A DNA stretch of 64,000 nucleotides from Candidatus Oxydemutatoraceae bacterium (GCA_965220085.1 CBDCOZ010000003.1:672001-736000); one strand, 5' to 3'; positions 433 through 63,781 are shown, numbered from the stretch's first letter. A program made the numbers and translations. Notes: a model not told the origin generated them from the letters alone.

Positions 433-3159
433 TTACCGCAGCGGCCCCTCCAAGAAGATGCGCAAGCGCAGGCGCAGGTCGCCCCCCAGATGGATGTTCA
501 TGGTGGCGGGCGCGCTACTCTCCGTGCCATCGCTGACAGTGAATTTAAATGAGTCATAGTTTCGCCCCGCTTCCGCACCGTCCGCCGGGTAGTAAGCGAG
601 CATGGAGATGTCGGACACAGACACCACGTTGTTTTTGCTCGAGCCGGATGTCAACAGCGCTTCGCCGCCTACCAACAAAGCGCCCTTGTCCGGCGCATCG
701 GTGATGGTGATACCTTGCAGAGAGTCACCGGTGTCCTCGTCGGCAAACGGGAAGTCGCTCTTCTGAAATGCATGGGGCATCTCCTCGGTGGTCATGGTGG
801 GCACGGACACTTCGCTGTCTTCGGTCATCGGCGCATCGTTGACATTGGCAACCCGCGCACCAGCGGAACAGAGCGGGCCCTCGTCGGTGTCTATGCCATC
901 TTTAAATGTCAGGCAGACGCGGATGTATCTGCCCACCTGAGCTTGCCGCGGGGTGAAGGCGGCGGCGGCGGCTCCGGCGATGACGGCGTAGGCGCTGTCC
1001 GCCGGGGCGTTGCCGTTGGCGGGGGCGGCGGCAGATTCCCACTGCCACATCAGGGTTCTGCGGTCTATGCCGTTGCCATCGGTGATGTCGTCGACGGAGG
1101 CGGTCAATTCCGTGTCCTCGTCGTAGGCGGCGCCGGCAACCGCTGTCACCGTCGGCATGCCGGTTGCCGTTGATTGCATGGCCGACACCAGGGCTATGGT
1201 GATGACGGCCTCGTTGCTATCCTTCGCATCCGTGCCGGTTCGGACGCTGTACGTAAATCTGTCATAGTTCGCCGTGGGCGTGGTGGCATCCGCGGCAAGG
1301 ACATAGACCAACTCGATCCCTCCTTCTTCTCCGAGTTGCTCAAATTCTTCCCTTGTGAATGCTGCGGGAACGCTCGTTAAAGTTGCAGCAGTAGCGGTGG
1401 CGGGGCGGCGGAGAGACAGCGTACCGTTGTCAGGCAGACTGACTAATTGCATGTGAACCAAGGCATCCCCGTCCTCGTCGCTAAACGGAAAATCATCCGC
1501 CGAGAAATCATAACTGCGGCCCGCGGCCACGGGGATGGTATTGCCCGGCGCCACCGGCGCATCGGCGACATCGGCGGTCGTGATGGAGGCGGAATAGAGC
1601 GGACCCTCGCTCTCGCCCAGGCCATCGTCAAAGGTGATGCGGACGCGGGTATGCATGCCCACCTGGGCCTGGGTCAGGGCGAAGGCGGCATCGGTGGCCC
1701 CGGTTATGTTGGTCCAGGCGCTGCTTGTCGGCGGCGGGGCCGCGCCATCGACCGGGGCGGCTTGCTGCCACTGCCACCTGACTGTGCCCTCGTCTATGCC
1801 GTTGCGGTCAAATATTATAAAGTTCGTGCCGTCATCGTATGCGGCGGTCAGCACGGTGTGCTGGAGTTGGCTGGCGCCCGAGGGGGTGATGGCTGGCGCA
1901 CCGCCGGCGGGGACCTGGTTGGTGTCTGCCAGACGGATGTTCATGATGGCGGGGCCAGCGCTTACATTGGTTTCTATCTCTTCGCCATTGGCATCCACCC
2001 TAATATCGTCGCCATCGTCCTCCACCCAGAATCTGAACTGGGCGTAGAATGAACCTGTCAAATTATAGCGGTCGGTGACAGGCCTATAGCTGACCGTCGG
2101 ATAGTAGGTGAGGTCGCCAGCCTCAAGTTGCGCCACGGTTACGGTGGTCGGGAGGTTGTTGTCGTTCAGGGTTCCGGTGCCATCCAGAACTAAAGTGCCG
2201 GTGCCCTGGGCGTTGCCACTGTGCGGGCTGGGTATAACGATGTTCACCAACGCATCGCCATCGTCATCGGCGAAGCGAAAGTCGGATGGCTTGAAGACAT
2301 ATGGCTCGTCGGAAGTGGCGTCGGCGCGCACCGCAACACTGCTTCGCTGTGCCACCGGCGCATCGTTGGAGTTGACCACCAGCCCCTCGGTGGTGAGGCA
2401 GAAATTTTCCACGGTGCCAAAGTCATCCGTATAGGTGATACAGCAACGGATGCGATTGCCGACATGTTTCTGGTCGGGGGTAAAAGACAGGATTAGTCTG
2501 CTGGTTTCGGTGAATATCCCGTCGCCGCCATTATCGGCGCTCCAAATATATGTGGCATTGTGGAGACTACTCAAACCGTCGGCGTCGTTTATGCCCTCGG
2601 GTATCAGTCCTATGCCCATGCCCTCTACGAGTGCGCCGGTCAGCGCAGGGGCGCCTTCACCGGTTCCCATGGTAAACATGGGGTTGTCGGGCGGATTATT
2701 GAATCCGGTCACGGCATCGTCTATCCGATGGCATCTCGTCTCGGAATTGGGGGTGGCGGCCATATCCATGAACGTGGCGCAGACCTGCAGATACTTGCCC
2801 ACCTGATCCTGTCGCGGGGTTAAGGTGGCGGTGTTCGCGTTATTGGATCTGGTGGCGGTGATGTCGGTATAGGTGCCGCCGTTGGAGTCGGCCTGGCTCC
2901 ATTGCCAAGTGGCGACGAAGGGGTCTGGCAACCCATCGGTGTCGGCTATGTCGCCCTTGGATGCGGTGATGGCGATGTTCCTGTTGGGGGCGCTGAGCTC
3001 TCTGGCGTAGGATACGGCGGGCTCACCGGTGGCGTTCTGCGCCTGTGCCTGAGCGCAGACAGCGAGCATGGCGAGCACAAAAAGACCGCGCCCGATCATC
3101 GTTGCCCACCCGTATGTGCACAGGGGGGGGGGGGTAGCATTAAAAACTTGTTTATTCAT
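433..3159 (-). CDS. FLEGPLR-tag family secreted protein A (908 aa); alternating cadherin/Ig-like repeats; poly-C12 in frame (ON)
   Basis: GGAG RBS precedes ATG 3159 (MNKQVFNATPPPL...). Signal peptide ends AQAQA. Repeated DFPFxDxD and W.WQ...FTPxQxQVGxYxxVC modules. Ends LRLRLRIFLEGPLR*. Confidence 0.85.
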   Translation of the reverse strand: MNKQVFNATPPPLCTYGWATMIGRGLFVLAMLAVCAQAQAQNATGEPAVSYARELSAPNRNIAITASKGDIADTDGLPDPFVATWQWSQADSNGGTYTDITATRSNNANTATLTPRQDQVGKYLQVCATFMDMAATPNSETRCHRIDDAVTGFNNPPDNPMFTMGTGEGAPALTGALVEGMGIGLIPEGINDADGLSSLHNATYIWSADNGGDGIFTETSRLILSFTPDQKHVGNRIRCCITYTDDFGTVENFCLTTEGLVVNSNDAPVAQRSSVAVRADATSDEPYVFKPSDFRFADDDGDALVNIVIPSPHSGNAQGTGTLVLDGTGTLNDNNLPTTVTVAQLEAGDLTYYPTVSYRPVTDRYNLTGSFYAQFRFWVEDDGDDIRVDANGEEIETNVSAGPAIMNIRLADTNQVPAGGAPAITPSGASQLQHTVLTAAYDDGTNFIIFDRNGIDEGTVRWQWQQAAPVDGAAPPPTSSAWTNITGATDAAFALTQAQVGMHTRVRITFDDGLGESEGPLYSASITTADVADAPVAPGNTIPVAAGRSYDFSADDFPFSDEDGDALVHMQLVSLPDNGTLSLRRPATATAATLTSVPAAFTREEFEQLGEEGGIELVYVLAADATTPTANYDRFTYSVRTGTDAKDSNEAVITIALVSAMQSTATGMPTVTAVAGAAYDEDTELTASVDDITDGNGIDRRTLMWQWESAAAPANGNAPADSAYAVIAGAAAAAFTPRQAQVGRYIRVCLTFKDGIDTDEGPLCSAGARVANVNDAPMTEDSEVSVPTMTTEEMPHAFQKSDFPFADEDTGDSLQGITITDAPDKGALLVGGEALLTSGSSKNNVVSVSDISMLAYYPADGAEAGRNYDSFKFTVSDGTESSAPATMNIHLGGDLRLRLRIFLEGPLR
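3123..3134 (-). repeat. Poly-C12 tract in the leader of gene A (in frame)
   Basis: G12 on the + strand. Confidence 0.9.
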
Positions 3160-3408
3160 AGTATCTCTCCAAATGGCTTGTCTGGTGAATACGATTATGC
3201 CACGAGTGTTGGCACTCTTAGTGCTATGTACTCTATCACAAATCATAGTCTTCCTCCTGATGTTCGGTCTTGTCTAACAAATATAGTTATATCGATGAGT
3301 GCCGTACTCTTAGCATTTGTACTCTGCCACAAAGCGCAAGTTATCAAATTTCCATTCATGGGTAGCCTTCCGATAGGGTACTCTTATGTACTGCACTACG
3401 AGTATCGC

Positions 3409-3437
3409 ACTCTATCACAAGCGCGAGCCCTTTGCAA
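3409..3437 (-). promoter_or_regulatory. Family sigma70-like promoter TTGCAA-N17-TAGAGT
   Basis: Variant of the motif found upstream of all family loci. Confidence 0.55.
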
Positions 3438-4025
3438 GCGCCTGTTTGATGCCATGACATAGCGGACATTTGGGGCAAATATCGTGTGTGTCACAGGCGC
3501 TTGAAACATCGGCACATAGCGGGATGCGCGGCCTTGAAGCCTCTATCGGCGCAAGGGTTCCGGGGCTTGGTTCGTTATCCGTAGCAATGGCCGCAAGGTG
3601 GTACGTAGCCTTGAAACCCGTGCCGGAACGGGGCGTACGGTGCGCTATGACGGCGGGTCGCGCGCGCCCGGCGCATCTGATCGGGTGCGTCGGCAATCAG
3701 GCGCGCGCGGGCCGGCGAAGCCGCGCATGCCATGGCAACTGATATTTTTGCCCCGCGCATGCCGTGATGAGCGGCTGAGGCGGCAAGCGTCCATGCTGGC
3801 TTTTATGCCGCGTGTCTCCGATAATGTAAGGGCTTCAAGTTTTGGTCGCAAGACTCATGGTTGCCTCCTTTGTGGCGGAAGCAACTATTTTGTGGAAACC
3901 TCTGATGCCGTTGCCGATGTGTTGCTGTTGCGACAACTCGTGTTGAAGCCGGGAATCCGCAATGTTTCCGGCATGATTCAATATCTGTCTCAAGATGTAT
4001 GTAAATATCACGGCTTTATTCTGTT

Positions 4026-6715: not shown

Positions 6716-6877
6716 ACAAATATAATACCCTAAGCAAGGCAAATAGACATTGTTTCGGCGTTATCATCCCTTTGCAACGCAACGATAGTCGGTCGCAAGG
6801 CGGCGGGTGTTTTGCAAGAGCAAAACAAGATTTGGTAAAATGAGCAGTTAGTCATAAGAACTTGAACTGATAACAAA

Positions 6878-10502: not shown

Positions 10503-11391
10503 CTACCGCAACGGGCCTTCTAAGAAGAGACGCAAGCGCAAGCGCACATCGGAAGACACCAGGTTGATGGTCATGGTATGTTGTGCGCTGGATGCCGTGC
10601 CATCGCCATCGCCGACGGTGAATCTGAAGCTGGCAAAGTTGGCGGCGGGGGTGGTGTTGGCCGGGGGATGATACCTGAGGGTGCTGATGACATCCCGGCT
10701 GAGGGAGGTGCCGTCGGTGACCGCCACCTGGGAGCTGCCGCTGGCTCTGGTCAGGGTGCCCTTGCCCGATGCTATGGTTTCAACTATGGTTACGCTGGCC
10801 AGGTCGCTGGTCTCCTCGTCCATGAATGGGAAGTCATCGGCCATGAAAATATATGGATTTTCCGCGGTTGCGGCGGAGGACACATTCACAGAGGCATCGT
10901 CGCTGGTGGGCGCATCATTGACAGCGACCACAGCGGTGGCTATCTGCAGGCATCGATTGTCCGTATTGCCGGCGCTGTCGAGAGTGTCCGCGCAGACCCG
11001 CAGATACTTGCCCACATTGGCCTGCAACGGCGTGAAAGTGCCACCGGCGTGAGCGTAAGTGTAGGTGCCGCCATTGGCGTCGGCCTGAAACCATCTCCAA
11101 GATGTGACGTGGACGTCGGTGGTTGGCGTACTGTCAGGGTCCTCAATGGTGCCCTTGTTGGCGGTGATGGGGGAGTCCTCAGTGGGGACGTTTATGCCGC
11201 TGGCGTAGGTGACGGCGGGTTCCCCGGTGGCGTTGCCCTGCGCCTGCGCTTGAGTGCAGACAACAAACAGCACTGGCAACATCAGCGAGCAGAGGCTACG
11301 CCGAGTTAGTCTTGCCCGCCCATTAGGGGGGGGGGGGGGGGGGGGGGGTAGTATTAAAAGTATTTTGGTTCATGTTATTTTGTCGGATCAT
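10503..11391 (-). CDS. FLEGPLR-tag family protein B; poly-C23 frameshift (OFF; -1 C restores frame)
   Basis: GGAG RBS, ATG 11391 (MIRQNNMNQNTFNTT-polyP). TAA follows the tract immediately. The -1 frame gives NGRARLTRRSLCSLMLPVLFVVCTQAQA, then two Ig/cadherin-like modules. Ends VRLRLRLFLEGPLR*. Confidence 0.8.
11326..11348 (-). repeat. Poly-C23 tract
   Basis: G23 on the + strand. Confidence 0.9.
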
Positions 11392-16339: not shown

Positions 16340-17528
16340 ATGAATCGACAGACTTCTAATACTTCCCCCTCAAGCAGGCGGAAGATCTTGCATTTGCAGG
16401 CATGTAGTGCGAAGCAAAAAACGTTAATACTACCCCCCCCCCCCCCCCCGCTATGTAAATAAGGGGATTGCGGGCGTTTCGCCGTCTCGCCTCTTCACCC
16501 GTTTTTTATCACCCGCATATCGCAACCCGCCATCCGCCGTAGCGCGGCTGCGTTGCCCGGCTGTGCCCGGTCTGCGGCTTTCGCTATGGCGGCGATTTGT
16601 GGCGCTCTTTGCGCCCGCACGGGCGGCGGCGCCGACCGACGGGGTTGCATCAAGAACTGCCATGCATTGCCTGCTGGCATTGTCCCTGGCATTGGGCGCA
16701 ACCTGCGCCTCGGCCCAGACAAGCGGCATCCCCGCCGCCCAGGATATCAGCATTGATGCCGAGGTTTGGGGTAGTTCCTACGAGTTTGCTCTCAACGACT
16801 TTGCCTTCAAAAATGCGGATGGCAGCCCCACCACCAGAAGTGATTTCGTCGTGGAAATAGCCACTTTGCCTGACCGTGGCATATTGGTTAAAAGAAGCGG
16901 GCGGGTTATTCGCATCAATCAGGTGCAGAGTGCGATCCACCCTTCCGACTTAAGGGGAGGCGAGTCTTTGCAATTACTCTGGGTGCCTCCCTCTGATGTC
17001 ATTTCCGAAACCCCCGGCTATACCAGTTTCACTTATCGCGGCTACAGTTTCAGGGATCCCAGCACCTACAGTTCGCATGGCACCGTCACCATCAATATGG
17101 TGGCGCTTCGCGAAGCGCAACAAATCGCCGATGGTGCGCCCACGGTGACGGGTAGCACGGGCATTTCATATGATGTCAATGCGCCGCTGACGGCTTCCAT
17201 CTATGGCGTGACTGATCGCAACGGCATTGATACAAGCACCCTGGGCTGGAAGTGGCAACAGGCCGATGCGCCCGTCAGCGGTGTTCCCGCAGACAGCGCC
17301 TACATTGACATAGCGGGCACCATGACAACGGGCGGCCTCACCTCCGCCTTCACGCCGCGCGCCGCCCATGTCGGCAAATACATTCGCGTATGCGCCTCCT
17401 TCAAGGACCAGCACCCCATGCCGGAATCCGAGGAGCAATGCACCATCGGTCTTCCTGTGGAAGGTGCGTCGTCCGGCGCAAGTTTGCGTTTGCGTCTGCG
17501 TCTCTTTCTGGAAGGGCCGTTGCGGTAA
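16340..17528 (+). CDS. FLEGPLR-tag family protein C; poly-C17 frameshift (OFF; -1 C restores frame)
   Basis: GAGGAG RBS, MNRQTSNTS... and C17 at 16433-16449, then CTA TGT AAA TAA. The -1 frame joins ORF 16563-17528, with h-region LLALSLALGATCASA. Confidence 0.8.
16433..16449 (+). repeat. Poly-C17 tract
   Basis: Direct count. Confidence 0.9.
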
Positions 17529-18631
17529 TGGAAACTTCACATAGGAGATATTTAAAAATGTTTGCAGTACTTACATCCATGCATCGCCTTGCGGGCATAG
17601 CGAGCGCTTCGCCGCATAAGCTTGCCGGTCGCTTTTTATCGCCCGCACATAGCAACCCGCCATCCGCAAAGCGGTGCGTGTCGGCTGTGCGCGGGTTGTC
17701 GCTGTGGTTGCGGTCTGTTGCGGTGCGGAAGGCAGGCGCCGGCGGCGCCGTAGCTGGATGCGCCATGCATTGCCTGCTGGCATTGTCCCTGGCGTTGGGC
17801 GCAACCTGCGCCTCGGCCCAGACAAGCGGCATCCCCGCCGCTCAGGATATCAGCATTGATGTCCCTGTTGGGAACCTTACCTACATCTTTCAGGAAAACG
17901 ACTTTGCCTTCAAAGATGCGGATGGCAGCACTGCCACCAGAAGCGAATTCGGCGTGGAACTCATCACTTTGCCTGACCGCGGCATATTGATTAGAAGAAA
18001 CGGAGGATTAATCCGCATCGATGGGACGAGACTCTTCGCTCCCACCTTTGACGCCGATTCTGGCAACAATCTGTTCTGGGTGCCTCCCTCTGATGCCATT
18101 TCTGCCGCCCCCGGCTATGCCAGTTTTGCTTATCGCGGCGTCGCTTTCAGCGATGTCAACGCCATAAGTTCGCATGGCACCGTCACCATCAATCTGGTCA
18201 TAGACGAAACCTCGCAGGTAGCCGCCACCGGTGTGCCCGCGGTGACGGGCGGCACGGGCGCTTCATATGGAATCAATGCGCCGCTGACGGCTTCCATCTA
18301 TGGCGTGGCTGATGACAATGGCATTGATACAAGCACCCTGAGCTGGAGGTGGGAAGAAGCCGATATCCCCGCCACCGGCACCTCTGTAGCCCGTGAGGAT
18401 GCCTACGGCGATATAGCGGGTGCCGCGACAACGGGCGGCATCACCTCCGGCTTCACGCCGCGCGCCGCCCATGTAGGCAAATACATTCGCGTATGCGCCT
18501 CCTTCAAGGACCAGCACCCCACGCCGAAAGACGAGAAGCGATGCAACGTCGGCGTTCCTGTGGTCAATCCGTCGTCCGGCTCAAGTCTGCGTTTGCGCCT
18601 GCGTCTCTTTCTGGAAGGGCCGTTGCGGTAA
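17528..18631 (+). CDS. FLEGPLR-tag family protein D, paralog of C; no poly-C
   Basis: ATG overlaps the stop of C (TAATG); alternative RBS-preceded ATG at 17558. Same signal peptide and two-module body as C. Confidence 0.85.
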   Translation: METSHRRYLKMFAVLTSMHRLAGIASASPHKLAGRFLSPAHSNPPSAKRCVSAVRGLSLWLRSVAVRKAGAGGAVAGCAMHCLLALSLALGATCASAQTSGIPAAQDISIDVPVGNLTYIFQENDFAFKDADGSTATRSEFGVELITLPDRGILIRRNGGLIRIDGTRLFAPTFDADSGNNLFWVPPSDAISAAPGYASFAYRGVAFSDVNAISSHGTVTINLVIDETSQVAATGVPAVTGGTGASYGINAPLTASIYGVADDNGIDTSTLSWRWEEADIPATGTSVAREDAYGDIAGAATTGGITSGFTPRAAHVGKYIRVCASFKDQHPTPKDEKRCNVGVPVVNPSSGSSLRLRLRLFLEGPLR

Positions 18632-18674: not shown

Positions 18675-19418
18675 ATGAATAGACAAATTTCTAATACTGC
18701 CCCGCATTGGCGGGCAACACTCACCCGGCTTAGCCTCCGGTCGCCGATTGCGTCTTCACGCGGGGCGTCTGATTTAAGTTCGCATCATCTTAAAATTGCG
18801 GGAGGGATTTGCGCGGCGATGATGCTCGCTTGCGCATTCGCCGCGAACAGCGTGTCAGCGCAAACTTGTCCGCAGGGACAGGAAAATGTTCGCGGAACTT
18901 GCCGCAATGTTTGCGCCGACGGAGAAATGCGAATCACTTCCACAGTGTCGGGTTTCGAATTTAACACCGGTTGCTTTCCCGATGCGGAGATTGCCATTGT
19001 GGATGACTGCAGGGATGCGGGATGGGGGGACGGCACCGGCGACGGAGTCGGAATATTTTTTTCACTGGGGCTGTTGGGTTGCCAAATTCCGTCCGAGCTT
19101 TATGCCAGCACATCCTCGCGAGCAGACAGCCTCTGCTACATCCGAGGGGGCGCGCCATTATGCGCAGACATGTACGGCGCTCCGCCGGCTTTTCCGAAAG
19201 CCGCGGAACACCCCGATGTCACAGTAGGGTCCAATGCTTTCTTTGTGGCAAATTGCGACCGCAACGGGAATGTCCCCGGCGGTTATCCGCCGGACCGCAA
19301 CTTGAACGGCGAAACCGAATGCAGTTGCAATCCGGGTTCGCACTTCGGCGAATATCCGAACTGCGCTCCGGGCCCGCGTTTGCGTCTGCGTCTCTTTCTG
19401 GAAGGGCCGTTGCGGTAA
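18675..19418 (+). CDS. FLEGPLR-tag family protein E, Cys-rich secreted protein
   Basis: GGAG RBS, MNRQISNTAP leader with only a C4 run, signal ending VSA, many Cys (ANCDRNGNVPGGYPPDRNLNGETECSC), tag at end. Confidence 0.85.
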   Translation: MNRQISNTAPHWRATLTRLSLRSPIASSRGASDLSSHHLKIAGGICAAMMLACAFAANSVSAQTCPQGQENVRGTCRNVCADGEMRITSTVSGFEFNTGCFPDAEIAIVDDCRDAGWGDGTGDGVGIFFSLGLLGCQIPSELYASTSSRADSLCYIRGGAPLCADMYGAPPAFPKAAEHPDVTVGSNAFFVANCDRNGNVPGGYPPDRNLNGETECSCNPGSHFGEYPNCAPGPRLRLRLFLEGPLR

Positions 19419-20584
19419 TGGAAACTTCACATAGGAGATATTTAAAAATGTTTACAGCACTTACATCCATGCGCCGCCTTGCGGGCATAGCGGGCGCTTC
19501 GCCGCATAGGCTTGCCGGCCGCTTTTTATCACCGACACATCGCGACTCGCCATCCGTCGTAGCGCGGTTGCATCGCCCGGCTGTGGTCTGGCTGTTGCTT
19601 CCGCTGGCGCTGCTGTCCGCTCTGGCCTCCCCCGCGTTCGCGCAGTCGCTCAGCTTTGCATTTGATCTGAGTGATCGGGTAACGGTCACAGGCCGGACCA
19701 TAAGCTGGCAGTTGCCCGCAGTTCGGCAGAGCGGCGCCTACGCCTATGCGCTCGCACCCGCAACCCTGCCCGCAGGGATGACATTCTCCGCCGCCACCCG
19801 GCAAATTACGGGCACAGTCACAGCCGCCATGGCCAAAACGGAGTACACATACACCGCCACCAACGCAGACGGCGGCTCGGTGAGCGGGACTTTCGCCATT
19901 GAAGTGTTTCAGGGGCCCACATGGGAAGCCAGAGTTGGCTTCTCCCTCGCCACAACACTAGCCACTCTGGCAGTAGCTCAGGACTTGGGGGGCGATAATC
20001 AAATTTGGCTGGCGGGCGAGGCTTTGCCTGGCATGTCGATCAACCCCGTTGGCGGCACCATACCATATGCCTATACGCTATCGCCCGCGACCCTGCCCGC
20101 CGGTGTGACCGGCGCAATAAACCCTCAAATTACTGACTGGTTTCAGTTTTCCGGAACACCGACAGAAGCCATGCCCACCACCACCTACACGCTGACGGCG
20201 ACGGATTCGGCCAGCCCTCCGGTGTCCGTCGATTACACCTTCACCATCACGGTGGAAGCCGATACCGCGCCCGATTTTGGCGATGCATCGGTGGGCACCC
20301 GTATTTGGCCGCCCGGCACGACCGCAACGCTGGTATTGCCCGCAGCCACCGGCGGCAATGGCGCCATCACCTATGCGATCACTCCGAATCTGCCCGACGG
20401 CCTCGCCTTTGATGCCGACACCCGCACCATCAGCGGCGCACCCTCAACCGCTACGGCCGTCGCCGAATACACCCTCACCGCCACCGACGACGAAGGCGAC
20501 ACGGGCACGCTGACCTTCGGCATAGACGCGATGCACCCCATGCGCTTGCGTCTGCGCCTCTTCTTAGAAGGCCCGTTGCGGTAG
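19418..20584 (+). CDS. FLEGPLR-tag family protein F, three putative-Ig (He_PIG-like) repeats
   Basis: TAATG coupling to E. LPAGMTFSAATRQITGT, LPDGLAFDADTRTISGAP and YTLTATD repeats. Ends MRLRLRLFLEGPLR*. Confidence 0.85.
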   Translation: METSHRRYLKMFTALTSMRRLAGIAGASPHRLAGRFLSPTHRDSPSVVARLHRPAVVWLLLPLALLSALASPAFAQSLSFAFDLSDRVTVTGRTISWQLPAVRQSGAYAYALAPATLPAGMTFSAATRQITGTVTAAMAKTEYTYTATNADGGSVSGTFAIEVFQGPTWEARVGFSLATTLATLAVAQDLGGDNQIWLAGEALPGMSINPVGGTIPYAYTLSPATLPAGVTGAINPQITDWFQFSGTPTEAMPTTTYTLTATDSASPPVSVDYTFTITVEADTAPDFGDASVGTRIWPPGTTATLVLPAATGGNGAITYAITPNLPDGLAFDADTRTISGAPSTATAVAEYTLTATDDEGDTGTLTFGIDAMHPMRLRLRLFLEGPLR

Positions 20585-20895: not shown

Positions 20896-22889
20896 ATGAA
20901 CCGACAAACTTCTGATACTTCCCCCTCTAGCAGGCGGAAGCGATCGCATTTTCGAGCATATATCTTGAAATACAAAACCTTTAATACCCCCCCCCCCCCC
21001 CCCCTCCTCCTGTAGCCACTGAACAGCGGTTCAGTTGCCGCAGCCTTCGGTCGCTGACCATCCTCACTTTGTTTGCGTTGTGCGCTCAGGCACAGGCGGC
21101 CACGCCAGTGCCCAAGGACAGTAGCATAGATGTGTATATATCTGCCACCGCCACCAACCCGTACACTTTCAAGGCCGGTGATTTCCCGTTTGAAGATGCC
21201 GATGGCGATGCTCTTTCAAGCATCAGCATAGAGACCCTGCCCGATAAGGGTACCCTGCGGGTGGGCGAATCAGATGCCACCCAGTTCCAGCAAGTGACCG
21301 CCGCCGCCATCCCCACCATCACCTGGCGCCCCGCATTGAATCAGTCCGCAGGCAACAACCACACCAGCTTCACATTTGGCGTACACACCAGGGGCAGAAG
21401 CATAATGACCGGCACCGTCACCATCAACCTCATATATGTGAATTCTCCCGCCACCGGCGCCATTATCATTCTGGACACAGGCGGCTTTGCCCTGACCGAC
21501 ACCCACGCACCGGACGAACACGAGGCTCTGGCCGCCCGCGCGGACTCCATAACCGATGCCGACGGCTTGAATGTCAACCTGACCTCAAGCCAGCGATGGC
21601 AATGGAGCGCGGATGACGCGGGCAACGGCGTATTCGCCGCCATCGCCGGAGCCACCATGAGCACCTTCACCCCCCGGGCCGGGCATACGGGCAATGCCCT
21701 GCAGGTCTGCTACAGCTTCACCGATGACCGCGGCGGCATGGAGCAGGTGTGCGCCACCACTCAGCCAGTCGCCGATGTGAACAGCGCTCCGGTGGCCATA
21801 GACAACACCGTATCCGTGCCCTGGACCGCCACCGAGAATGCCCAATTCTCCATGAACCTGAACCACTTCACCTTTGAGGATGCCGACCATCATGGCCTGC
21901 ACAGCCTCATCATAACCGCGCTGCCATCAAGGGGCACTCTTACCTTCGCCGGCGTCACTGTGAGATCTTCATTTCTGCCTTCCCAACTAAGCAGATCCGG
22001 TCTCGTTGCGGGCCGCCTCGCATACTATCCGGCGCCAAATGTGGCTCAACAGGCCGCCGCAGGGTACGACAGCTTCACCTTTCAAGTGGTCGACAATGGC
22101 CCCGGCGCAGAAGCCAGCAGCGCATCCGCCACCCTGACCATAGATCTGGTGGCCCCGGCAATGCAGATGCCAGCCACTGGCATGCCCAGCATCATCGGAG
22201 TTCTGGACCCGGTCACCGGCGGCTATCAGGAAGGCCAAATTTTGGCCTCTAACACAGTTGGAATAGACGACCCCAACGGCATAAACCAGCAGACCCTGAC
22301 AAGGGAATGGCAGGTATCTGCCACCGAGAACGGACCCTGGACCCAGGAATCAAGCAGCTTATTGCTGCTGGAACAAAAGCATGTGGGCGGGTATGTGCGC
22401 TTGTGCATCAGCTTTGATGACCTGCACCCCGCCCCCAACAGAGAGGGGCCTTTGTGCACCATGGCTTTCCCCGTTGCCAACCTCGGCGACCAGCCAATAC
22501 CGCAAGACCGCACCATCCAGGTGCGATTGGATGCCAGCATGGCAAGCCCCTACAGATTCACCGCAGCCGACTTCCCATTCGAGGATGAGGATAACGACGG
22601 CCTTGCAAGCATCACCCTGGAATCAATCCCTGCCGTCGGCACGTTGCGCGTGGGCGATGCCGCCGCCGTCGTCGGGCAGGTTGTGGATGTCGACGACATC
22701 CCCGCCATTAACTATTACCCGGAGCCCGGTCAAGCCTCCGCTGAGGGCTACGCCTCTTTCAGATTCAGGTTAACCGACGACAGCAACGACGGCGGGCGCA
22801 GTGACAGCTTAGGGGCTGGCACCATCACCATAAATCTGGGGGGGCTTACCTTGCGCTTGCGCCTCTTCCTGGAAGGGCCGTTGCGGTAA
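20896..22889 (+). CDS. FLEGPLR-tag family protein G; poly-C18 frameshift (OFF; +1 or -2 restores frame)
   Basis: MNRQTSDTS leader, C18 at 20987-21004, TAG at 21013. The shifted frame gives VATEQRFSCRSLRSLTILTLFALCAQAQA, then five alternating cadherin/Ig-like modules. Confidence 0.8.
20987..21004 (+). repeat. Poly-C18 tract
   Basis: Direct count. Confidence 0.9.
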
Positions 22890-23586: not shown

Positions 23587-24787
23587 ATGAACCGACAAAA
23601 TTTTAATACTGCCTCCTTTAACAGGAGGAAGCGATCGCATTTTCGAGCATATATCTTGAAATACAAAACCTTTAATACCCCCCCCCCCCCCCCCCCGCTA
23701 TGTAAATAAGGGGGTTGCCAGCGTTTCGCTGTATCGCCTTCTCACCCGTTTTTTATCACCGACACATCGCGACTTGCCATCCGTCGGAGCACGGTTGCAT
23801 CGTCTGGCCGCGGCCGGGCTGCCGGTTGCGCTATTGTTGCTGTCTGTTGCGGCCTCCCCCGCGCTCGCGCAGAGCAGCTTTGATGGCAGCCTACCGGATC
23901 GGAGGTCTGCCACAAATGTTAGCGTATTCTGGACTCTCCCCAAAGCTCTTCCGGAAGGCGCCTACACCTATGCGCTTGCGCCCGCCACCCTGCCTGCGGG
24001 CCTGACATTCTCGGCCTCCACCCGGCGAATCACGGGTACGACCACAGCCGCCATGGCCGAAACGGAGTACACATACACCGCCACCGCCGCAGACGGCGGC
24101 ACACTGAGCGGGACTTTCACCATTGAAGTATTGCGGGGGCCCACATGGCTTCTGGGCGCCAGGTTCTCTACTCTGATGTCTACCCAGGAGTTGGGGGGCG
24201 ATAATCAGATTTGGCTGGCGGGCGAGGCTTTGCCGGGTTCTTATGAAATCTTCCCCAGTGGCGGCGTTAGGCCCTACACCTATACCCTGTCACCCGCGAC
24301 CCTGCCTGCCGGTGTGACCGGCGCAAGCAACGATCTTGGCTTTTTTGAGTTTTCCGGAACACCGACAGAAGCCATGCCCACCACCACTTATACGCTGACG
24401 GCGACGGATTCGGCCAGCCCCCCGGTGTCCGCCGCATACACTTTCACCATCACGGTGGAAGCCGATACCGCGCCCGATTTTGGCGATGCATCGGTCGGCA
24501 CCCGTATTTGGCCGCCCGGCACGACCGCAACGCTGGTATTGCCCGCAGCCACCGGCGGCAATGGCACCCTCACCTATGCGATCACTCCGGATCTGCCCGA
24601 CGGCCTCGCCTTTGATGCCGACACCCGCACCATCAGCGGCGCACCCTCAACCGCTACGGCCGTCGCCGAATACACCCTCACCGCCACCGACGACGAAGGC
24701 GACACGGGCACGCTGACCTTCGGCATAGACGCGATGCACCCCATGCGCTTGCGTCTGCGCCTCTTCTTAGAAGGCCCGTTGCGGTAG
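23587..24787 (+). CDS. FLEGPLR-tag family protein H, paralog of F; poly-C19 frameshift (OFF; -1 restores frame)
   Basis: MNRQNFNTAS leader, C19 at 23678-23696, then CTA TGT AAA TAA. Body is He_PIG-like, with the 3' half nearly identical to F. Confidence 0.8.
23678..23696 (+). repeat. Poly-C19 tract
   Basis: Direct count. Confidence 0.9.
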
Positions 24788-32943: not shown

Positions 32944-33556
32944 CTATCGCAACGGGCCTTCAAGGAAGACGCGCAAGCGCAGGCGCGGGCCCGGAGTGCA
33001 GTTCGGATAGTCGCCGAAGTGCGAAGCCGGATTGCATACGCATTCGGTTTCGCCGTTGAGGTTGTGGGCCGGCGGATAGCTGCCGGGGACTGTGCCACTG
33101 AGGCTACAGTCTGCAACAAAGGCGATTCCGCTGTTTTGGCGGACACGAGGATGGTCCTCCGCTCTTGGAAAAACTGGCGGGTTGCCATATAAGTCTGTGC
33201 AAGTGGGGACGTTTCCGTGTAAGAAGCAGCTATCACTTGCACCTCCTAATATACTGTGTGACGGGATGAGGCAAGACAACTCTAACGACGCAACGCTTGA
33301 CCAGGACCAACCCGCGTCTTCACAGTCCTCCAGAATTGGAATTAGGGCATCGTCAAAGCAACCAGTGTTGGGCAAAGCAGGATCGCTTTGATCCGTAACT
33401 CGCGTTTGCCCTTCGGGGCATTCGGTTTGCGCGTATGCGCTGTTTGCAAATGTGCAAGCAAGTATTACCGCCGCGCAAATTCTAAGCGTAGCGGGGGGGG
33501 GGGGGGGGGGTAGCGGTATTAAAAATTTGTTGGTTCATGATATTTCGTTGATTCAT
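32944..33556 (-). CDS. FLEGPLR-tag family protein I, Cys-rich; poly-C18 frameshift (OFF; -1 restores frame)
   Basis: GGAG RBS, MNQRNIMNQQIFNTAT, tract 33493-33510, then TAG. The -1 frame gives ATLRICAAVILACTFANSAYA-QTECPEG. Ends RLRLRVFLEGPLR*. Confidence 0.8.
33493..33510 (-). repeat. Poly-C18 tract
   Basis: G18 on the + strand. Confidence 0.9.
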
Positions 33557-33953: not shown

Positions 33954-35293
33954 CTATCGCAACGGGCCTTCAAGGAAAAGGCGCAACCGCAAGCGCAGGT
34001 ATGGCTGGCGAACGCATTCCGTCGCACCATTCAGATTCGCCCTCGCCGGAATCATGCCCTCCCCGCAGTTGAAAACATACGGCTCCCGAACCGGAATCAT
34101 GTTAAACGCCGCCCTGATTCGCGCGATAATTTCATTGTCGCTTGCCCCGAGGCGCAGCGAAAAGGGAATCCCGTTGTCCCGGAACACTTGTATCAAAATA
34201 AATTCGTTGCCAACTTCGACTTGCAACTGCTCGCGGCTGACTTGACTGATGGCTTCGTTAATATAGTCCGGCTCGCCGTTGTATCGCCCCAAAACCGCAT
34301 TCGCATAAGCCAGCGCCACAGTGCCAAGAGTGTCGCTTCGTCGGAAATTTATCAACTGAAAGCCGTCATAAAGATTTTGCACCAGCGGCGGCAGAGCCGG
34401 CGGAAAGGCGTATTCCTCGCCGAACACATCATCGCACAGAGGCATGTCCGTGCCCGTGCTCGCGATAACAAAGCAGCCGTCATAATCCGTATCCGTCTCG
34501 TCCGAAGTCAGCGGGATTTCGCATTTGATGGGGGTGGTGGTAGTGGAAATAGTCCACCCTTGACTCGTGCATATGCCAACCGCCTCCCGCTGGGCGCGGG
34601 TCAAAGTCGGCGCGGCAACGCAGTCCGGCCATTCGCCGATGTGCGAGTCCAAGTCGCAGGAGCATTCGGTTTCGCCGTTGAGGTTATGGTCGGGCGGATA
34701 GCCGCCGGGGACATTTCCGTCCCGGTCGCAGTTCGCCACAAAAGAATCCCCGCCGGACCCATCAGCTTTAACATTGGTGTGGTCCGCCGCTTTCGGAAAA
34801 ACTGGCGGGTCGCCAAACATATCTGTGCATAACAAAACACTTCTTCCCTCTATGTCGCATATGTCCCCGCTATTCAAGCTGGACCCTGTATACAAAGCGA
34901 CCCCAATCTGACAACCCAATTCTCCAGACGAGATAAACACACTCGTCGAATCCCTGCCCAACCAACCCGCACCTTCACAGTCCTTCAGAATTTCGATTGC
35001 GGCATCGGTAAAACAATTCGTGGCATTGGAGAGGGAGTCTCGGGTTACCCTCGTGACTCGCGTTTCCCCTTCTTCGCAGACATCGTGGCAGGAGCCGAGT
35101 TCGGAAACCATCTCCTGTCCCGCCAGACAGGTTTGCGCTGACGCGTTGTTCGCGGCGAATACAAAAGTAAATACGAGCGCTATCGCCGCACAAATTCGGC
35201 TATTGCGGAGGGAGCACCGCCTGCCCGTTAGGGGGGGGGGGGGGGGGTAGAGGTATTAAAAGTTCTCTGGTTCATGCCATTTTGTCGTTTCAT
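33954..35293 (-). CDS. FLEGPLR-tag family protein J, two Cys-rich modules; poly-C17 frameshift (OFF; +1 or -2 restores frame)
   Basis: GGAG RBS, MKRQNGMNQRTFNTST, tract 35231-35247, then TAA. The +1 frame gives LTGRRCSLRNSRICAAIALVFTFVFAANNASA-QTC. Confidence 0.8.
35231..35247 (-). repeat. Poly-C17 tract
   Basis: G17 on the + strand. Confidence 0.9.
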
Positions 35294-35624: not shown

Positions 35625-36020
35625 CTATCGCAACGGCCCTTCAAGGAAAAGGCGCAACCGCAAGGCTGTTGCCACAGGCAACGGTGGCACAGCGACCCTT
35701 CCGATGCGGGCGTGGGAAACCGATCCATGAAGCCATCCATCAAAGAGGCGCGCGGCGCGGTGGGTTGTCCGCATTGCCAGCAAAGGAAGGCTACCCGCAA
35801 GGGCAAGCGACTCGGTGATGACCGGCGCAAAGCATGCGATACGGAGTTTGCTGTGCGCCGATTCGTTGCGCGGAACAATTTCGCGCGAGGCGCAAAGCAT
35901 GTGATACGGAGTTTGTTGTGCGCCGACACGTGCTTTCGCATGCCACCCCACTCCATTCGAAAGCATGTGATACGGAGTTTGTTGTGCGCCGACACGGCAA
36001 ACGATACCGCCGCAGGTCAT
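35625..36020 (-). pseudogene. Tag-bearing ORF without signal peptide (ends ALRLRLFLEGPLR), overlapping the stop of the CPBP gene
   Basis: Intact tag, but the body is built from 33-bp repeats; coding status doubtful. Confidence 0.45.
35829..35992. repeat. Three 33-bp direct repeats with 32/33-bp unique spacers
   Basis: AAAGCATG(C/T)GATACGGAGTTTG(C/T)TGTGCGCCGA at 35829, 35894 and 35960. Confidence 0.8.
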
Positions 36021-36895
36021 CGGTTATGGCCGGAAGTAATCCCGCGTCTGAGGTTTGAAAACCACCAGAGGGTTATCACGCCGAACCAGATTGCGGCGCC
36101 CCAGCCGATAAACCCGTCGTAATTGCCGATCAGAAATGCGAAATCCGAGTCGGGATTGGCAGCGGTGAACTTTTTATTCAGTTTGACTACGATGATCCAA
36201 CCGCAGTGGACGCCGATGCACGGCATGATGTGGTTTGCCGATAACCTGACAAGCGCAAGAAAAGCGCCCGCCAGGAACAGGGCGGTTGCCGTCTGAATCG
36301 CATCATAAAACCCGTGCTTTTCGCGAATGCCTTCGGCAAGGTTCCATATCCCGGCATACCAAGGCGCGGTCGTGTCGGGCGGCGATTCTTGGATCGCAAT
36401 AAAATGCAGCGCGGCGAACAGCGCGGACGGCAGCAACACGGCCATGACTGTCTGGCCCTTTTTGACGAAGCCGTCCATCAACGCGCCGCGGAAGAAGCAT
36501 TCCTCGATGGTCGCTATCAGCAAAGCGGCCAGAGCTATGCGCGGCAGAGCGGACAGGATTTGGAAGTCTTTGTCCGGGGCGTTCAGGCCTATCATCCAAA
36601 AGAGCATTGCAAGCGTCAGAGCAATGAGGGTGCCGGCGAAGAGACCGGTCAAAAACAAACGCAACGGTTTTGGTTCCGTCTTGATAAAGCCGAACGTTTT
36701 TAACAACGGCAGCTTGCGCGCCTTGAGCGCAAAAACAACAAAGAGGATAATGGACAAGATGATGAGAACTTTTGCGAAGCGGCGAAACTTAATCAGCGAC
36801 TCCAACGCCGTCCATTCGTACAAAGGCCGGGATATTGCGGCGGCGGCGAGGATGGCGATAGCCGTCGTAAAGACCAGAATCAGAAAATGTTTCAT
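36017..36895 (-). CDS. CPBP (CAAX protease/Abi) family intramembrane glutamic endopeptidase
   Basis: EECFFRG, LFAALHF, GVHCGW, multiple TM helices. Confidence 0.85.
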   Translation of the reverse strand: MKHFLILVFTTAIAILAAAAISRPLYEWTALESLIKFRRFAKVLIILSIILFVVFALKARKLPLLKTFGFIKTEPKPLRLFLTGLFAGTLIALTLAMLFWMIGLNAPDKDFQILSALPRIALAALLIATIEECFFRGALMDGFVKKGQTVMAVLLPSALFAALHFIAIQESPPDTTAPWYAGIWNLAEGIREKHGFYDAIQTATALFLAGAFLALVRLSANHIMPCIGVHCGWIIVVKLNKKFTAANPDSDFAFLIGNYDGFIGWGAAIWFGVITLWWFSNLRRGITSGHNR

Positions 36896-36992
36896 GTTGT
36901 GACGAACATTATATCTATCCGACAAATGCGCGCGCGCTCGCGCGGTGTCGCTCGCGCGGTTTGCCCGTCGCTTGGGTTAAGATAGGGGGCAT

Positions 36993-55188: not shown

Positions 55189-55190
55189 CT

Positions 55191-55975: not shown

Positions 55976-56236
55976 ATGAAGAAATATAAAGTTATATGCA
56001 TATCCGCACTCGCTTCCGTCTTGTTATTCGGATGCGGCGGCGAACCGGAAGGCATGTGGGAAGCGACCGTTACCTCATCGCAAAACGGCAAAGAGGAAGC
56101 GGTCGGTCAGTATATGAGCCGTGACGAATGCCAGCATGCCGGTTTGATGCACATTGCGGGTGACAAGGAGCAAGCGCACAAGCGAATGGAGAGAAACAAA
56201 ATGGCGGTGAGTTGCTCTTTTGTTCCGGCTAGTTAG
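55976..56236 (+). CDS. Small hypothetical lipoprotein
   Basis: GAGGAG RBS, lipobox LLFGC, Cys pair. Confidence 0.7.
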   Translation: MKKYKVICISALASVLLFGCGGEPEGMWEATVTSSQNGKEEAVGQYMSRDECQHAGLMHIAGDKEQAHKRMERNKMAVSCSFVPAS

Positions 56237-57110: not shown

Positions 57111-57144
57111 TGCGGTAAAATAGCCGTTCCCAATCGTTTGTCCG

Positions 57145-58194: not shown

Positions 58195-58203
58195 TGGCGG
58201 GGC

Positions 58204-62073: not shown

Positions 62074-62156
62074 GATGCCCTATAATACGGGCGCTCCGAA
62101 CGGCCGCTGCTGATTGGCTGCCGGGGCAAGCGCGCACTTTAATTTAAGCAATAGTT

Positions 62157-62741
62157 ATGCCGACCAGAATCCTTGTTCACGCCTTGTGCCTGCTGCCTAT
62201 GATATGGCTGCTCGCCTTGGCATACCGCTCCGGTCTCGGCGCCAATCCGATCGAATACATCACGCGCTACAGCGGCGATTGGACATTGCGCATGCTTTTG
62301 ATCACGCTGACATTCAGGCCTGTCGCGCACATCTTGCGGCGGCCGTTTTTGTTACGCTATCGTCGCGCGGCAGGCCTGTATACTTTTGCCTATGCTTTCA
62401 GCCACTTCACAACCTATCTGTGGCTCGATCAATTCTTTGATTGGTTGTCTATCGTTGAGGATATCGCCGAACGGCCTTTCATACTCGCCGGGTTTACTTC
62501 TTTCGTTCTGATGATACCGCTTGCGCTGACATCCAACGATTGGTCCGTACGGTTGCTACAGAACCGCTGGAAAACACTGCATCGTCTGGTTTATCTGATA
62601 GCGATCGTGGGGCTCGTCCATTATTGGTGGCTGGTGCGGGCCGACTTTTTGAAAGCGTCGGTCTACCTCGTCATGTTGACGATCTTACTCGGCTACAGGG
62701 CATATTTTTCGGTCTTCGTGCGGGAAATTCTCAAGCGGTGA
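62157..62741 (+). CDS. msrQ: Protein-methionine-sulfoxide reductase heme-binding subunit
   Basis: LGANPIE, RRAAGLY, PLALTS, WKTLHRLVY, HYWW. Confidence 0.88.
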   Translation: MPTRILVHALCLLPMIWLLALAYRSGLGANPIEYITRYSGDWTLRMLLITLTFRPVAHILRRPFLLRYRRAAGLYTFAYAFSHFTTYLWLDQFFDWLSIVEDIAERPFILAGFTSFVLMIPLALTSNDWSVRLLQNRWKTLHRLVYLIAIVGLVHYWWLVRADFLKASVYLVMLTILLGYRAYFSVFVREILKR

Positions 62742-62782
62742 TAAACGGCTTCCCCTATTTTGCGGTGTCCTCGCTTATACCC

Positions 62783-62932
62783 TTGCTGGCCCTGCGGCTG
62801 CGCCTTTTCCTTCAAGATCCTTGCAATAATGCGGGTATCCTGCGGCAGAGCAGGGGAGTATTACGGGGCGCAGACAAGGGGAGCGAGGCAGGATATACAG
62901 GCACTTGCAAATGATTGACACTGTGGTATAGT
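62783..62932 (+). promoter_or_regulatory. Junction block: degenerate tag (LALRLRLFLQDP), linker and family promoter (62905-62932)
   Basis: Homologous to the reverse complement of 33880-33995 and 35545-35665. Confidence 0.65.
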
Positions 62933-63150
62933 GCGCTAAATGAGGGAAACAATGAACAATTCAACTCTTGTAAATGACTCGCACCTTGTGGCACGGCTAT
63001 GTACCACAAACAACATTCATATGTGTGCAAACGATACGAGACCACAAACGATATTTAATCGCTTGTGCTCCATAAACTGTTTGCGGATTGTTTATAATGT
63101 GACTGGTTGCACAACTGTATTCACTAGCTCAGGCGATAAGGAGTAATGCC

Positions 63151-63781
63151 ATGAAACGAAAGATTTATAATACTACCCCCCCCCCCCCCCCCCCGCTGTG
63201 TAAATAAGGGGATTGCGGGCACTTGGCTGTATCGCCTCGCCGCCCGCTTTCTGCAAGCACTTCGCCCCTTCCCGCACTGGCGGGTAACACTAACCCGGCG
63301 TAGCCTCCGAGCACTGGTTCTGCTCGCCCTGCTCACCCTCTGCACTCAAGCGCAGGCGGCCGCGCCGATGATTGATCTGGACAGCATCATAAAAGTTCCC
63401 ATCAACGCAACCGCAGAAAATCCGTACTTCTTCAAAGCATCCGACTTTCCTTTTAGAGATGCCGATGGCGATGAACTGGAAATCGTGCACATACTCGGTG
63501 CCCCTGATGAGTCACAAGGCATATTGAGGGTGGGATCCACCGTTCTGACCGATCAGAATACGGCAGGTGCTGGTTTTGATGTGGCGGTGACCGACATCGG
63601 CACCATAAGCTACTATCCGATAGCGGGCCAATCCCCCAGAGTACACTCCGCCAGCTTTTTGTACTGGGTAACTGCCGGCGGCGACCTGTCCGATACTGGT
63701 GGTAGCATACGCATAGACCTGGTGCCACCACCGACCCTGCGGTTGCGCTTGCGCCTTTTCCTTGAGGGCCCGTTGCGGTAG
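63151..63781 (+). CDS. FLEGPLR-tag family protein K, single cadherin-like module; poly-C19 frameshift (OFF; -1 restores frame)
   Basis: AAGGAG RBS, MKRKIYNTT, tract 63176-63194, then CTG TGT AAA TAA. The -1 frame gives ...RRSLRALVLLALLTLCTQAQA. Ends LRLRLRLFLEGPLR*. Confidence 0.8.
63176..63194 (+). repeat. Poly-C19 tract
   Basis: Direct count. Confidence 0.9.

Follow-up and report, generated by a model that had tools for sequence, protein, structure and literature searches.

A short C-terminal tag on unrelated secreted proteins of a sponge-associated gammaproteobacterium as the probable detached first strand of an XDoc-like domain

Tagged genes in a 64-kb window

The window analysed here is a whole stretch of 64,000 nucleotides from Candidatus Oxydemutatoraceae bacterium (GCA_965220085.1 CBDCOZ010000003.1:672001-736000). 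It is C3:672001-736000 of a genome of 2.49 Mb in 3 contigs, referred to as G000. Its housekeeping genes pcnB, tig, clpX, lon, ppiD, purL and ppc point to a gammaproteobacterium. The subject of this study is a short peptide, (L/M/V)RLRLR(L/I/V)FLEGPLR, which stands directly before the stop codon of genes with unrelated bodies and is called the tag below. A six-frame scan gave 13 copies of tag and stop in the window. A degenerate DNA pattern for FLEGP(L/F)R-stop also matched 13 times, and it matched 0 times in each of 100 dinucleotide shuffles. A sequence-only reading of the window had listed 11 tagged gene ends; all 11 indeed end in ...RLR(L/I/V)FLEGPLR-stop, but the window total is 13. The other two, whose stops end at 284(-) and 35625(-), lie in short open frames of 76 and 132 codons and look like remnants. 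The copies are as follows, with positions counted from the first letter of the window.

284..328, minus strand: extra copy of tag and stop in a 76-codon open frame, just downstream of the gene at 433..3246; gene-end duplicate or remnant
433..3246, minus strand: tagged gene, 937 aa, cadherin-like/Big_9 body; tag and stop at 433-477; poly-C of 12 nt at 3123-3134 within the 5' leader MNKQVFNATPPP, in frame as assembled
10503..11369, minus strand: tagged gene, open frame of 288 codons, two-domain module (139 times in G000); tag at 10503-10547; poly-C of 23 nt at 11326-11348; as assembled, not in frame with the leader ATG upstream
16428..17528, plus strand: tagged gene, open frame of 366 codons, no Pfam match; tag at 17484-17528; poly-C of 17 nt at 16433-16449
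17390..18631, plus strand: tagged gene, paralogue of the gene at 16428..17528; tag at 18587-18631; without poly-C
18675..19418, plus strand: tagged gene, Cys-rich body, 247 aa, no Pfam match; leader MNRQISNT without poly-C; tag at 19374-19418
19022..20584, plus strand: tagged gene, He_PIG body; tag at 20540-20584
20985..22889, plus strand: tagged gene, open frame of 634 codons, Big_9/cadherin-like; poly-C of 18 nt at 20987-21004; tag at 22845-22889
23660..24787, plus strand: tagged gene, He_PIG body; poly-C of 19 nt at 23678-23696; tag at 24743-24787
32944..33534, minus strand: tagged gene, Cys-rich body, open frame of 196 codons, no in-frame ATG; poly-C of 18 nt at 33493-33510; tag at 32944-32988
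33954..35255, minus strand: tagged gene, Cys-rich body, open frame of 433 codons; poly-C of 17 nt at 35231-35247; tag at 33954-33998
35625..35669, minus strand: extra copy of tag and stop in a 132-codon open frame, no recognisable body; probable remnant
63155..63781, plus strand: smallest tagged gene, one cadherin-like domain plus tag; poly-C of 19 nt at 63176-63194; tag at 63737-63781

Are the bodies of these proteins related to each other? When the 11 tagged proteins of the window were scanned with Pfam, two matched Cadherin_3/Big_9/Cadherin_4 and two matched He_PIG (E 4e-26 and 2e-28). One of the others gave a weak CshA_repeat match below the cut-off, and six, including the three Cys-rich ones, gave no match. 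The bodies thus fall into unrelated classes as had been claimed, with the cadherin-like and He_PIG bodies recognised by Pfam and the Cys-rich bodies without any Pfam match. The claim that all of them carry Sec-type signal peptides stands in so far as such peptides are visible in the translations, but the heuristic used to count them is unspecific, since it accepts 178 of 189 tagged frames and also 740 of 1473 untagged genes.

Scale of the tag family and selection on the peptide

How far does the tag extend beyond the window? In the whole genome 221 copies of tag and stop were found, 213 of them with exact FLEGPLR, and all three stop codons are used (TAG 140, TAA 53, TGA 28). The looser regular expression adds just 8 non-exact copies among the 221. 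The copies are borne by 186 frames of at least 150 aa, 7 of 60-149 aa and 28 shorter than 60 aa. By a rough gene call, 173 of 1805 genes are tagged, which is about 9.6% of the genes of G000.

The variation among copies shows on what level the tag is conserved. Across the 208 unique tag DNAs, entropy is zero at codon positions 1 and 2, save for the synonymous C/T of Leu, and 0.5-1.4 bits at position 3; the invariance of positions 1 and 2 is partly circular for FLEGPLR, which was used in row selection, but the RLRL part is free of such circularity. When 5000 pairs were sampled among 209 unique copies, codons -5 to +6 showed 0-0.115 non-synonymous differences per codon (0.47 at the L/I/V site) and 0.23-0.66 synonymous ones, while the upstream codons have about 0.9 non-synonymous differences. 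Because the first two positions are fixed, the third is free, and non-synonymous differences are far fewer than in the upstream codons, the conserved unit is the 14 residues, and selection acts on the peptide. The sequence-only reading had argued the same from synonymous codon changes, and both counts agree with it.

Several other features of the tagged genes were noticed. Short copies of tag and stop often stand in tandem arrays behind full-length genes, with a spacing of about 114-168 nt, as at 284-477 in the window and at C3 908957-909461, 513743-514211 and 648679-648967 of G000. The 6 nt after the stop, CGCGAG, are weakly conserved genome-wide (entropy 1.0-1.4 bits, compared with about 1.9 farther on), which may come from shared ancestry of the gene ends. 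BLAST clustering of the tagged proteins gave 5 or 19 clusters and was not used for family counts, since shared leaders and shuffled domains made the clusters collapse.

For comparison, G000 was set beside 18 other genomes of its family and 22 genomes from three sister families. At E<=1e-5 the most frequent cargo module (259 aa) has 139 copies in G000, and the other 18 family genomes have none, so the tag is older than the expansion of its cargo.

Poly-C tracts at the 5' ends

The tagged genes of the window share a 5' arrangement as well, which consists of a ribosome-binding site, ATG AAx CRA CAA xxT TTT AAT ACT A, a poly-C tract and a signal peptide. The leader peptide of the poly-C genes reads MNxQxFNT, followed by a Pro run and then the signal peptide, and the tracts in the window are 12-23 nt long. 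Over the genome, 84 of the 189 tagged frames of at least 100 aa have a run of 9-28 C at the 5' end. G000 has just 100 C/G runs of at least 8 nt, of which these 84 stand at tagged genes, and it has no A/T run longer than 9. As assembled, 20 of the 84 tracts leave the frame in register with the upstream ATG and 54 put it out of register, while for 10 no ATG was found.

Phase variation by slipped-strand mispairing at homopolymeric tracts has been described for Neisseria, Campylobacter and Bordetella. The poly-C arrangement is probably a signature of the same process, and the tagged genes would then make up a large phase-variable repertoire. Tract lengths from a long-read assembly are unreliable. 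The raw Hi-C reads gave almost no real coverage, being mostly all-C reads stacked on the poly-C tracts, and were uninformative on tract length. Logan contigs gave one contig with one extra G at 33492 and nothing firm on variation of tract length.

Position of the tag and known sorting signals

The tag was proposed as a C-terminal signal, and most copies do precede a stop codon. This is not the whole picture, however. Eight matches of the regular expression in G000 have no stop after them, and five of these are real tags. Three of the five, outside the window at C1:36355-38001, C1:23865-25292 and C3:1171407-1173515, lie near the N-terminus of their proteins, which read as signal peptide, about 20 residues, LRLRLRVFLEGPLR, a GGS(S) linker and the body. 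One of these bodies has trypsin-type motifs (TAYHC and GGSSGG, seen by eye; no Pfam or NCBIfam match), and the other two are PPC-repeat proteins. A relative of the trypsin-motif protein in G011 has the tag at its C-terminus. The N-terminal copies therefore argue against recognition of a free C-terminus and against sortase-like cleavage, and they fit a docking strand. At the other two places, C3:629434 and C3:1859564, the tags read FLEGPLR-Q... and FLEGPLR-W with TGG; the first of these open frames continues across an intergenic stretch into the frame of the neighbouring gene.

Does the tag belong to a known class of sorting signals? Tripartite signals (LPXTG, PEP-CTERM, GlyGly-CTERM and MYXO-CTERM) are composed of a motif, a transmembrane (TM) helix and a basic cluster. 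The tag has a motif and lacks the other two, for its 14 residues end in EGPLR-stop and no hydrophobic stretch follows the motif. The signal of substrates of the beta-barrel assembly machinery (BAM) ends in an aromatic residue, while the tag ends in R in 219 of the 221 copies and in Q in one. The C-terminal domain of the type IX secretion system is a beta-sandwich of about 70-100 residues, whereas conservation of the tag begins 14 residues before the stop, without such a domain and without a Pfam or NCBIfam match. In all these respects the earlier comparison holds, and the 11 window proteins gave no NCBIfam sorting-signal match. The autotransporter idea was also dropped, as PF03797 had no match over the cut-off in 19 family genomes and no match whatever in G000. 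A gene of the CPBP family of intramembrane proteases lies at 36017-36925 (-) of the window, directly upstream of the tag remnant at 35625-35669. It was considered as a sorting enzyme and rejected, with weak MrtS/MrtJ matches far below the cut-off and no link to the tag.

The acceptor protein and its operon

A candidate partner of the tag appears in two genomes of Candidatus Porisulfidus, G015 and G002. Both encode giant proteins ending in ...KLFLEGPFR-stop, and behind each of them comes a gene for a 276-aa protein that has a signal peptide (gap of 30 nt in G015). The sole homologue of the 276-aa protein in G000 has 322 aa and lies outside the window, at C3:469169-470137 (tblastn, 28% identity, E 1.7e-20). 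It is called the acceptor below, and a profile search confirmed that G000 has a single copy (8.5e-91). Neither Pfam nor NCBIfam has a family for the acceptor of G000.

Among 5.8 billion proteins, 23 homologues of the acceptor were found, none of them informatively named. All but one are stand-alone (two of these 22 being N-terminal fragments without signal peptide), and their aligned region opens with M..L..(L/I)P..DPY after an AQ(A/T)-type cleavage site. The lone contiguous homologue, P0023, reads ...VNIKAFLQGPYSSGSMTTALRTAGVIPLTQPY where the others begin. The alignment of the 23 has invariant VVDWVL.ELR, ARKP..LSNGRVVDA and HRNH motifs and a dockerin-like C-terminal part, in which GDxNxDG-type motifs are visible in the Porisulfidus acceptors.

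The neighbours of the acceptor gene are of a recurrent kind. Only 10 nt downstream in G000 a protein of 1369 aa is encoded, with no Pfam family, a sub-threshold choice-of-anchor-U match (30.3 bits, cut-off 32) and the tail GGGGGGGG-AIALNEVIGLLALLGLVAYGI-RRQRRYE; the large protein of the operon thus ends in the form GGGGG-TM-RRxRR. A rhombosortase gene comes next (TIGR03902, 96 bits, cut-off 84). The order of acceptor, large protein with Gly run, TM helix and basic tail (1511, 2404 and 4401 aa) and rhombosortase (127-142 bits) recurs in G011, G015 and G017, and in G016 and G009 the acceptor adjoins a protein with such a tail. The large proteins of G000 and the other genomes are alike only in their C-terminal 150-300 residues. 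The stretch 3-10 kb upstream of the acceptor gene in G000 holds a cluster of the type II secretion system (T2SS; GspF, J, K, L and M by Pfam). A rough search also found a second Gly-run/TM/basic tail in this genome, on a PPC-domain protein at C3:1167979-1169079, 2.3 kb upstream of one of the N-terminally tagged genes; this protein is a second candidate substrate of the rhombosortase.

The domain family and the origin of the tag

Where does the tag come from? A search with the acceptor profile among 1.84 billion representatives gave 14283 proteins at E<=1e-3, 8546 at 1e-10 and 740 at 1e-30. In 168 family proteins examined there are 151 domain copies with the VDW motif, of which 59 lie within the first 125 residues and 92 later. 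The two groups differ at the start of the domain. Among the later copies, 65 of 92 have a strand of the form phi-phi-L-(E/Q)-G-(P/A/S)-aromatic 47-48 residues before the VDWVLVELR motif, most often as VFLEGPF (13), VFLEGPY (7) or AFLEGPF (6), and the consensus of this strand 1 is K-V-F-L-E-G-P-F/Y. Among the early copies the strand motif is missing in 47 of 59, and nearly all of these 47 have a signal-peptide-like N-terminus instead.

The domain itself is uncovered by Pfam in the 15 members scanned, and it has no NCBIfam match. Dockerin_1 matches are limited to the C-terminal part, over the cut-off in one of the 15 (P0031, 33.2 bits), below it in P0017, and lacking in the acceptors of G000 and G015. 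Partner domains in the family proteins include Fib_succ_major, Peptidase_C25, Laminin_G_3, FG-GAP, GEVED and a weak cohesin. Ten members that were looked up are 'hypothetical' or unnamed, save one that owes a TIGR02145-family label to its Fib_succ_major part; one of the ten is from a Bacteroidales metagenome-assembled genome (MAG) and one from a Thermoplasmatota MAG. The sequence-only reading had likened the tag to the strand 'xKVFLEGPY' with which a domain of Bacteroidota surface proteins begins. Such a domain has now been found, with the Bacteroidales protein as a member. For tag and domain alike there is no Pfam or NCBIfam model, and no description was found in the literature.

Profile comparison joins the three parts. 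In hhalign, 31 contiguous domains align to the 23 acceptors (probability 100, E 2.5e-62), and the signal peptide of the acceptors lies opposite the contiguous strand 'lnlkvfLEGPf'. When 21 tagged C-termini were compared with the contiguous domains, there was one match, which sets the tag onto strand 1 (17 columns, E 2.5e-4, probability 43). Because the tag falls on strand 1 and the acceptors have their signal peptide in the place of strand 1, the evolutionary identity of the tag can be named: it is very probably homologous to the first strand of an XDoc-like domain, XDoc being the pair of an Ig-like X-module and a type II dockerin that together form a single unit. After cleavage of its signal peptide, the acceptor of G000 is predicted to begin exactly where strand 1 would end, and the fold of the mature protein would thus lack one strand.

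The name XDoc-like comes from structure comparison, which was made on the contiguous homologue P0077, linked by hhalign to the acceptor of G000, and not on tag and acceptor of G000 themselves. The AlphaFold2 model of P0077, built from 31 sequences, has a mean predicted local distance difference test score (pLDDT) of 96.8 and a predicted template-modelling score (pTM) of 0.93, with residues 5-10 forming strand 1. Foldseek against the PDB placed XDoc chains on top (4u3s_B with E 2.6e-5, then 4fl4, 4wi0, 3kcp, 2b59 and 5g5d; probability 1.00). With VIA-align, eight XDoc chains gave Z 9.6-11.1 and a root-mean-square deviation of 3.5-3.7 over 143-152 aligned residues, covering model residues 2-223, while the next unrelated chain had Z 5.2. 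On the cargo side, the smallest tagged protein of the window was modelled alone (AlphaFold, 21 sequences). Its body, residues 1-117, is confident, and the tag at 121-135 is coil, with block pLDDT of 74 and 67.

Distribution among relatives

If tag and acceptor belong together, what is their distribution in the family? The strict pattern gave 214 matches in G000 (0 for the reversed-pattern control), 16 in G011, 2 each in G015 and G017, 1 in G002 and 0 in the 36 other genomes. The 16 copies in G011, which is of the same family and another genus, encode IRVRVKVFLEGPLR with different codons and conservative residue changes, on cadherin-like/GLUG-type bodies. A looser pattern gave 218 matches in G000, 51 in G007, 39 in G015, 29 in G016, 28 in G017, 25 in G002, 17 in G011, 16 in G018, 9 in G003 and 6 in G012, with 0-3 in the controls. 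The endings are genus-specific (RVFLEGALE, RVFLEGALQ, KLFLEGPFR, RVFLEGPLQ), and still other tails were seen in G006, G010 and G005: RVFLEGAVIP-stop, RVFLEGAVLTNTTTIQTDP-stop and RVFLQGALQ-stop.

By profile search the domain is present in 16 of the 18 other family genomes and in 0 of the 22 sister-family genomes. Acceptors that have a signal peptide and lack the strand were read in G002, G003, G004, G005, G006, G007, G010, G011, G012, G013, G015, G016, G017 and G018. Tags and strand-less acceptors occur together in G000 and at least 12 relatives (G002, G003, G005, G006, G007, G010, G011, G012, G015, G016, G017 and G018). G001 shows the fused state: its 26 domain matches all lie inside open frames of 1272-17496 codons, and it has 0 tags. 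In two of its copies that were read the strand is in place (...IRARVFLQGAY... and ...VDARVVLQGAL...), in one case at a distance of 197 residues from the stop. A fused form exists in G009 too. Neither domain nor tags were found in G008, nor in G014, which is 85% complete. In G013, internal tandem repeats at C1:1267970-1268990 contain ...SRVRVLFEGPGSTASS..., possibly tag-like strands in an internal position; no terminal tags were found in this genus.

Outside this set, a 39-bit DNA pattern run over genome contigs gave two Candidatus Porisulfidus MAG records and one chance match (TGG in place of the stop, 45-codon frame), and over metagenome contigs one chance match (23% GC, 26-codon frame); the pattern misses variant tails, and records near the window's own genome were possibly left out.

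Discussion

What could the tag do? We propose, with a probability of roughly 0.7, that it is the first beta-strand of an XDoc-like domain which gene fission split into two polypeptides in this lineage, and that the tail docks cargo proteins on the acceptor. Each cargo would retain only the strand phi-R-phi-R-phi-F-L-E-G-P-L-R as a flexible tail, and one secreted acceptor would provide the remainder of the domain. The cargo would be mostly Ig/cadherin-like (immunoglobulin-like or cadherin-like) adhesins, He_PIG and Cys-rich proteins, with a few PPC-repeat proteins, one of the tagged proteins having trypsin-type motifs. After Sec export the tail would enter the vacant strand position of the acceptor by donor-strand complementation, so that each cargo gains a dockerin-like module. 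The module would then hold the cargo on the cell surface, most likely through the large protein of GlyGly-CTERM type whose gene follows that of the acceptor after 10 nt and which the adjacent rhombosortase would process. By gene order only, this neighbouring rhombosortase substrate is an obvious candidate for the anchor.

Completion of the X-module of the acceptor by the tail is the simplest function, because the strand is strictly conserved on about 190 full-length unrelated cargo proteins, an N-terminal position is tolerated, the tail is free in the cargo model, and tags co-occur with strand-less acceptors. Strand complementation had been one of two functions suggested from the window; its basis is now firmer, in that the tag is matched to strand 1 and the acceptors are strand-less by hhalign and alignment, while the physical complementation, like the secretion route across the outer membrane, is what we infer.

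Several points weigh against this proposal. A single acceptor gene would serve about 190 full-length cargo genes, and a one-to-one stoichiometry would need high expression of the acceptor or few cargo genes switched on. The calcium-loop motifs are degenerate in the dockerin part of the G000 acceptor when compared with the Porisulfidus acceptors, and no Pfam cohesin exceeds the cut-off in G000 (best 14.4 bits, cut-off 24.1). The N-terminal part of the neighbouring GlyGly-CTERM-type protein could not be assigned to a known fold either: residues 40-440 gave no homologues, there was no sequence match in the PDB, and the best score for the N-terminus in an atlas look-up was 0.88, without a family. 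Finally, the genomes of genus g5 (G004, G009 and G013) have acceptors but no tags above background by the patterns used.

Other explanations should be considered. The tag might descend from strand 1 and now act as a cationic amphipathic strand that binds lipopolysaccharide or sulfated glycans of the host, or tags might co-assemble into a beta-sheet matrix, the role of the acceptor being unrelated. The alternation of R and L in G000 is far more regular and basic than in contiguous domains (lnlkvf), and both the ratio of one acceptor gene to about 190 cargo genes and the free tail in the model would suit such a role. However, the invariant part is FLEGPLR and not the R/L ladder, FLEGP is shared with the strand of the domain, and in other genera the tag has V/I and K, or fewer charges. 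Tags moreover co-occur with strand-less acceptors, and the fused-only genome has no tags. We therefore regard this explanation as unlikely, though it is the strongest of the alternatives. Somewhat less probable still is a secretion or sorting signal read by the T2SS, by a tail-binding PDZ protein or by a protease that cuts after Arg. It could appeal to the T2SS cluster 3-10 kb upstream of the acceptor gene, to the Arg at the end of all 13 window copies, and to the trypsin-type motifs of one N-terminally tagged protein whose G011 relative is C-terminally tagged. Yet in three proteins the tag is internal, close to the N-terminus, there is neither TM helix nor basic cluster nor match to a sorting-signal hidden Markov model, and the strand-1 homology and the strand-less acceptors would be left unexplained. 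If the acceptor also pilots export, such a signal is compatible with docking.

Could the repeat instead be a DNA-level element, such as a site for recombination or cassette shuffling, or a functionless relic of gene fission? The tandem arrays of tag and stop at a spacing of about 114-168 nt, the weak conservation of some 6 nt after the stop, and the conserved 5' leader and 3' tag that flank variable bodies are points in favour. But third codon positions are free while positions 1 and 2 are fixed, all three stop codons are used, and other genera use different codons; decay would be expected of a relic, whereas 213 of the 221 copies are exact. This is the least probable of the alternatives, and we consider it very improbable.

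Returning to the docking proposal, its fullest form is a natural, portable 14-residue plug tag, arisen by fission, that would link about 200 surface proteins, unrelated to each other and largely phase-variable, to one XDoc-type adaptor and through it to one lipid-anchored scaffold. This wider scenario is less secure than docking as such, and we put its chance slightly above even. If true, a small-genome sponge symbiont could reshuffle the adhesins it displays on that constant anchor, and the pair of tag and acceptor could be reused for orthogonal protein coupling. Insertion of the tail into the acceptor, if it takes place, would in itself be a third mode of attaching proteins to the surface of bacteria, next to sorting signals with covalent linkage and cohesin-dockerin pairs made of whole domains, in that a short peptide completes a split dockerin-type domain. 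It would explain how roughly one gene in ten of a 2.5-Mb symbiont genome can encode exchangeable adhesin-like proteins that share an anchor, and it would tie this repertoire to phase variation by poly-C tracts, which is known mostly from pathogens. As fused, split and absent states stand side by side in one family, the path from gene fission to a general-purpose tag is directly traceable. The analysis also assigns a fold to a very large unannotated domain family, with 14283 representatives at E<=1e-3.

Comparison with known systems

The XDoc of cellulosomal scaffoldins binds type II cohesins of cell-surface anchors (PDB 2b59, 3kcp, 4fl4, 4u3s, 5g5d). The complete domain described here has the same fold, by the Z scores and the 143-152 aligned residues given above, and in G001 it is likewise C-terminal on very large extracellular proteins. 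Sequence identity is 11-18% though, the host is a Gram-negative sponge-associated gammaproteobacterium, and G000 has no cohesin over the Pfam cut-off. A role in surface attachment would be in accordance with cellulosomes, where XDoc is described as attaching the complex to the cell surface (PMC5141474). What differs most is that the X-module would here be split after strand 1 into tag and acceptor, and no description of such a split was found for XDoc in the literature.

The proposed complementation resembles that of chaperone-usher and type V pili, in which an Ig-like fold is one strand short and the strand is supplied by the neighbouring pilin or by a chaperone. In both cases the missing strand of an Ig-like fold would come from another polypeptide. 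The pili, however, are homopolymeric fibres, while here about 200 unrelated cargo proteins would share a single acceptor, the absent strand is N-terminal in the fold, and the donor is a C-terminal, rarely N-terminal, tail. With GlyGly-CTERM systems the likeness lies in the neighbours, as a rhombosortase and a protein with Gly run, TM helix and basic tail stand beside the acceptor in four genomes, and these two probably supply the membrane anchor of the system. The FLEGPLR tag itself cannot be a rhombosortase substrate, because it has no TM helix and no basic cluster. Another parallel is SpyTag/SpyCatcher, an engineered split of the CnaB2 domain with a covalent isopeptide bond. There, as would be the case here, a short peptide completes a split Ig-like domain and couples any cargo to the partner; that pair is man-made and covalent, whereas here the split is natural and nothing hints at a covalent bond. 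Donor-strand complementation and dockerin-based display are thus each known, and the new element would be their joint use in a general tag that a tenth of a proteome carries.

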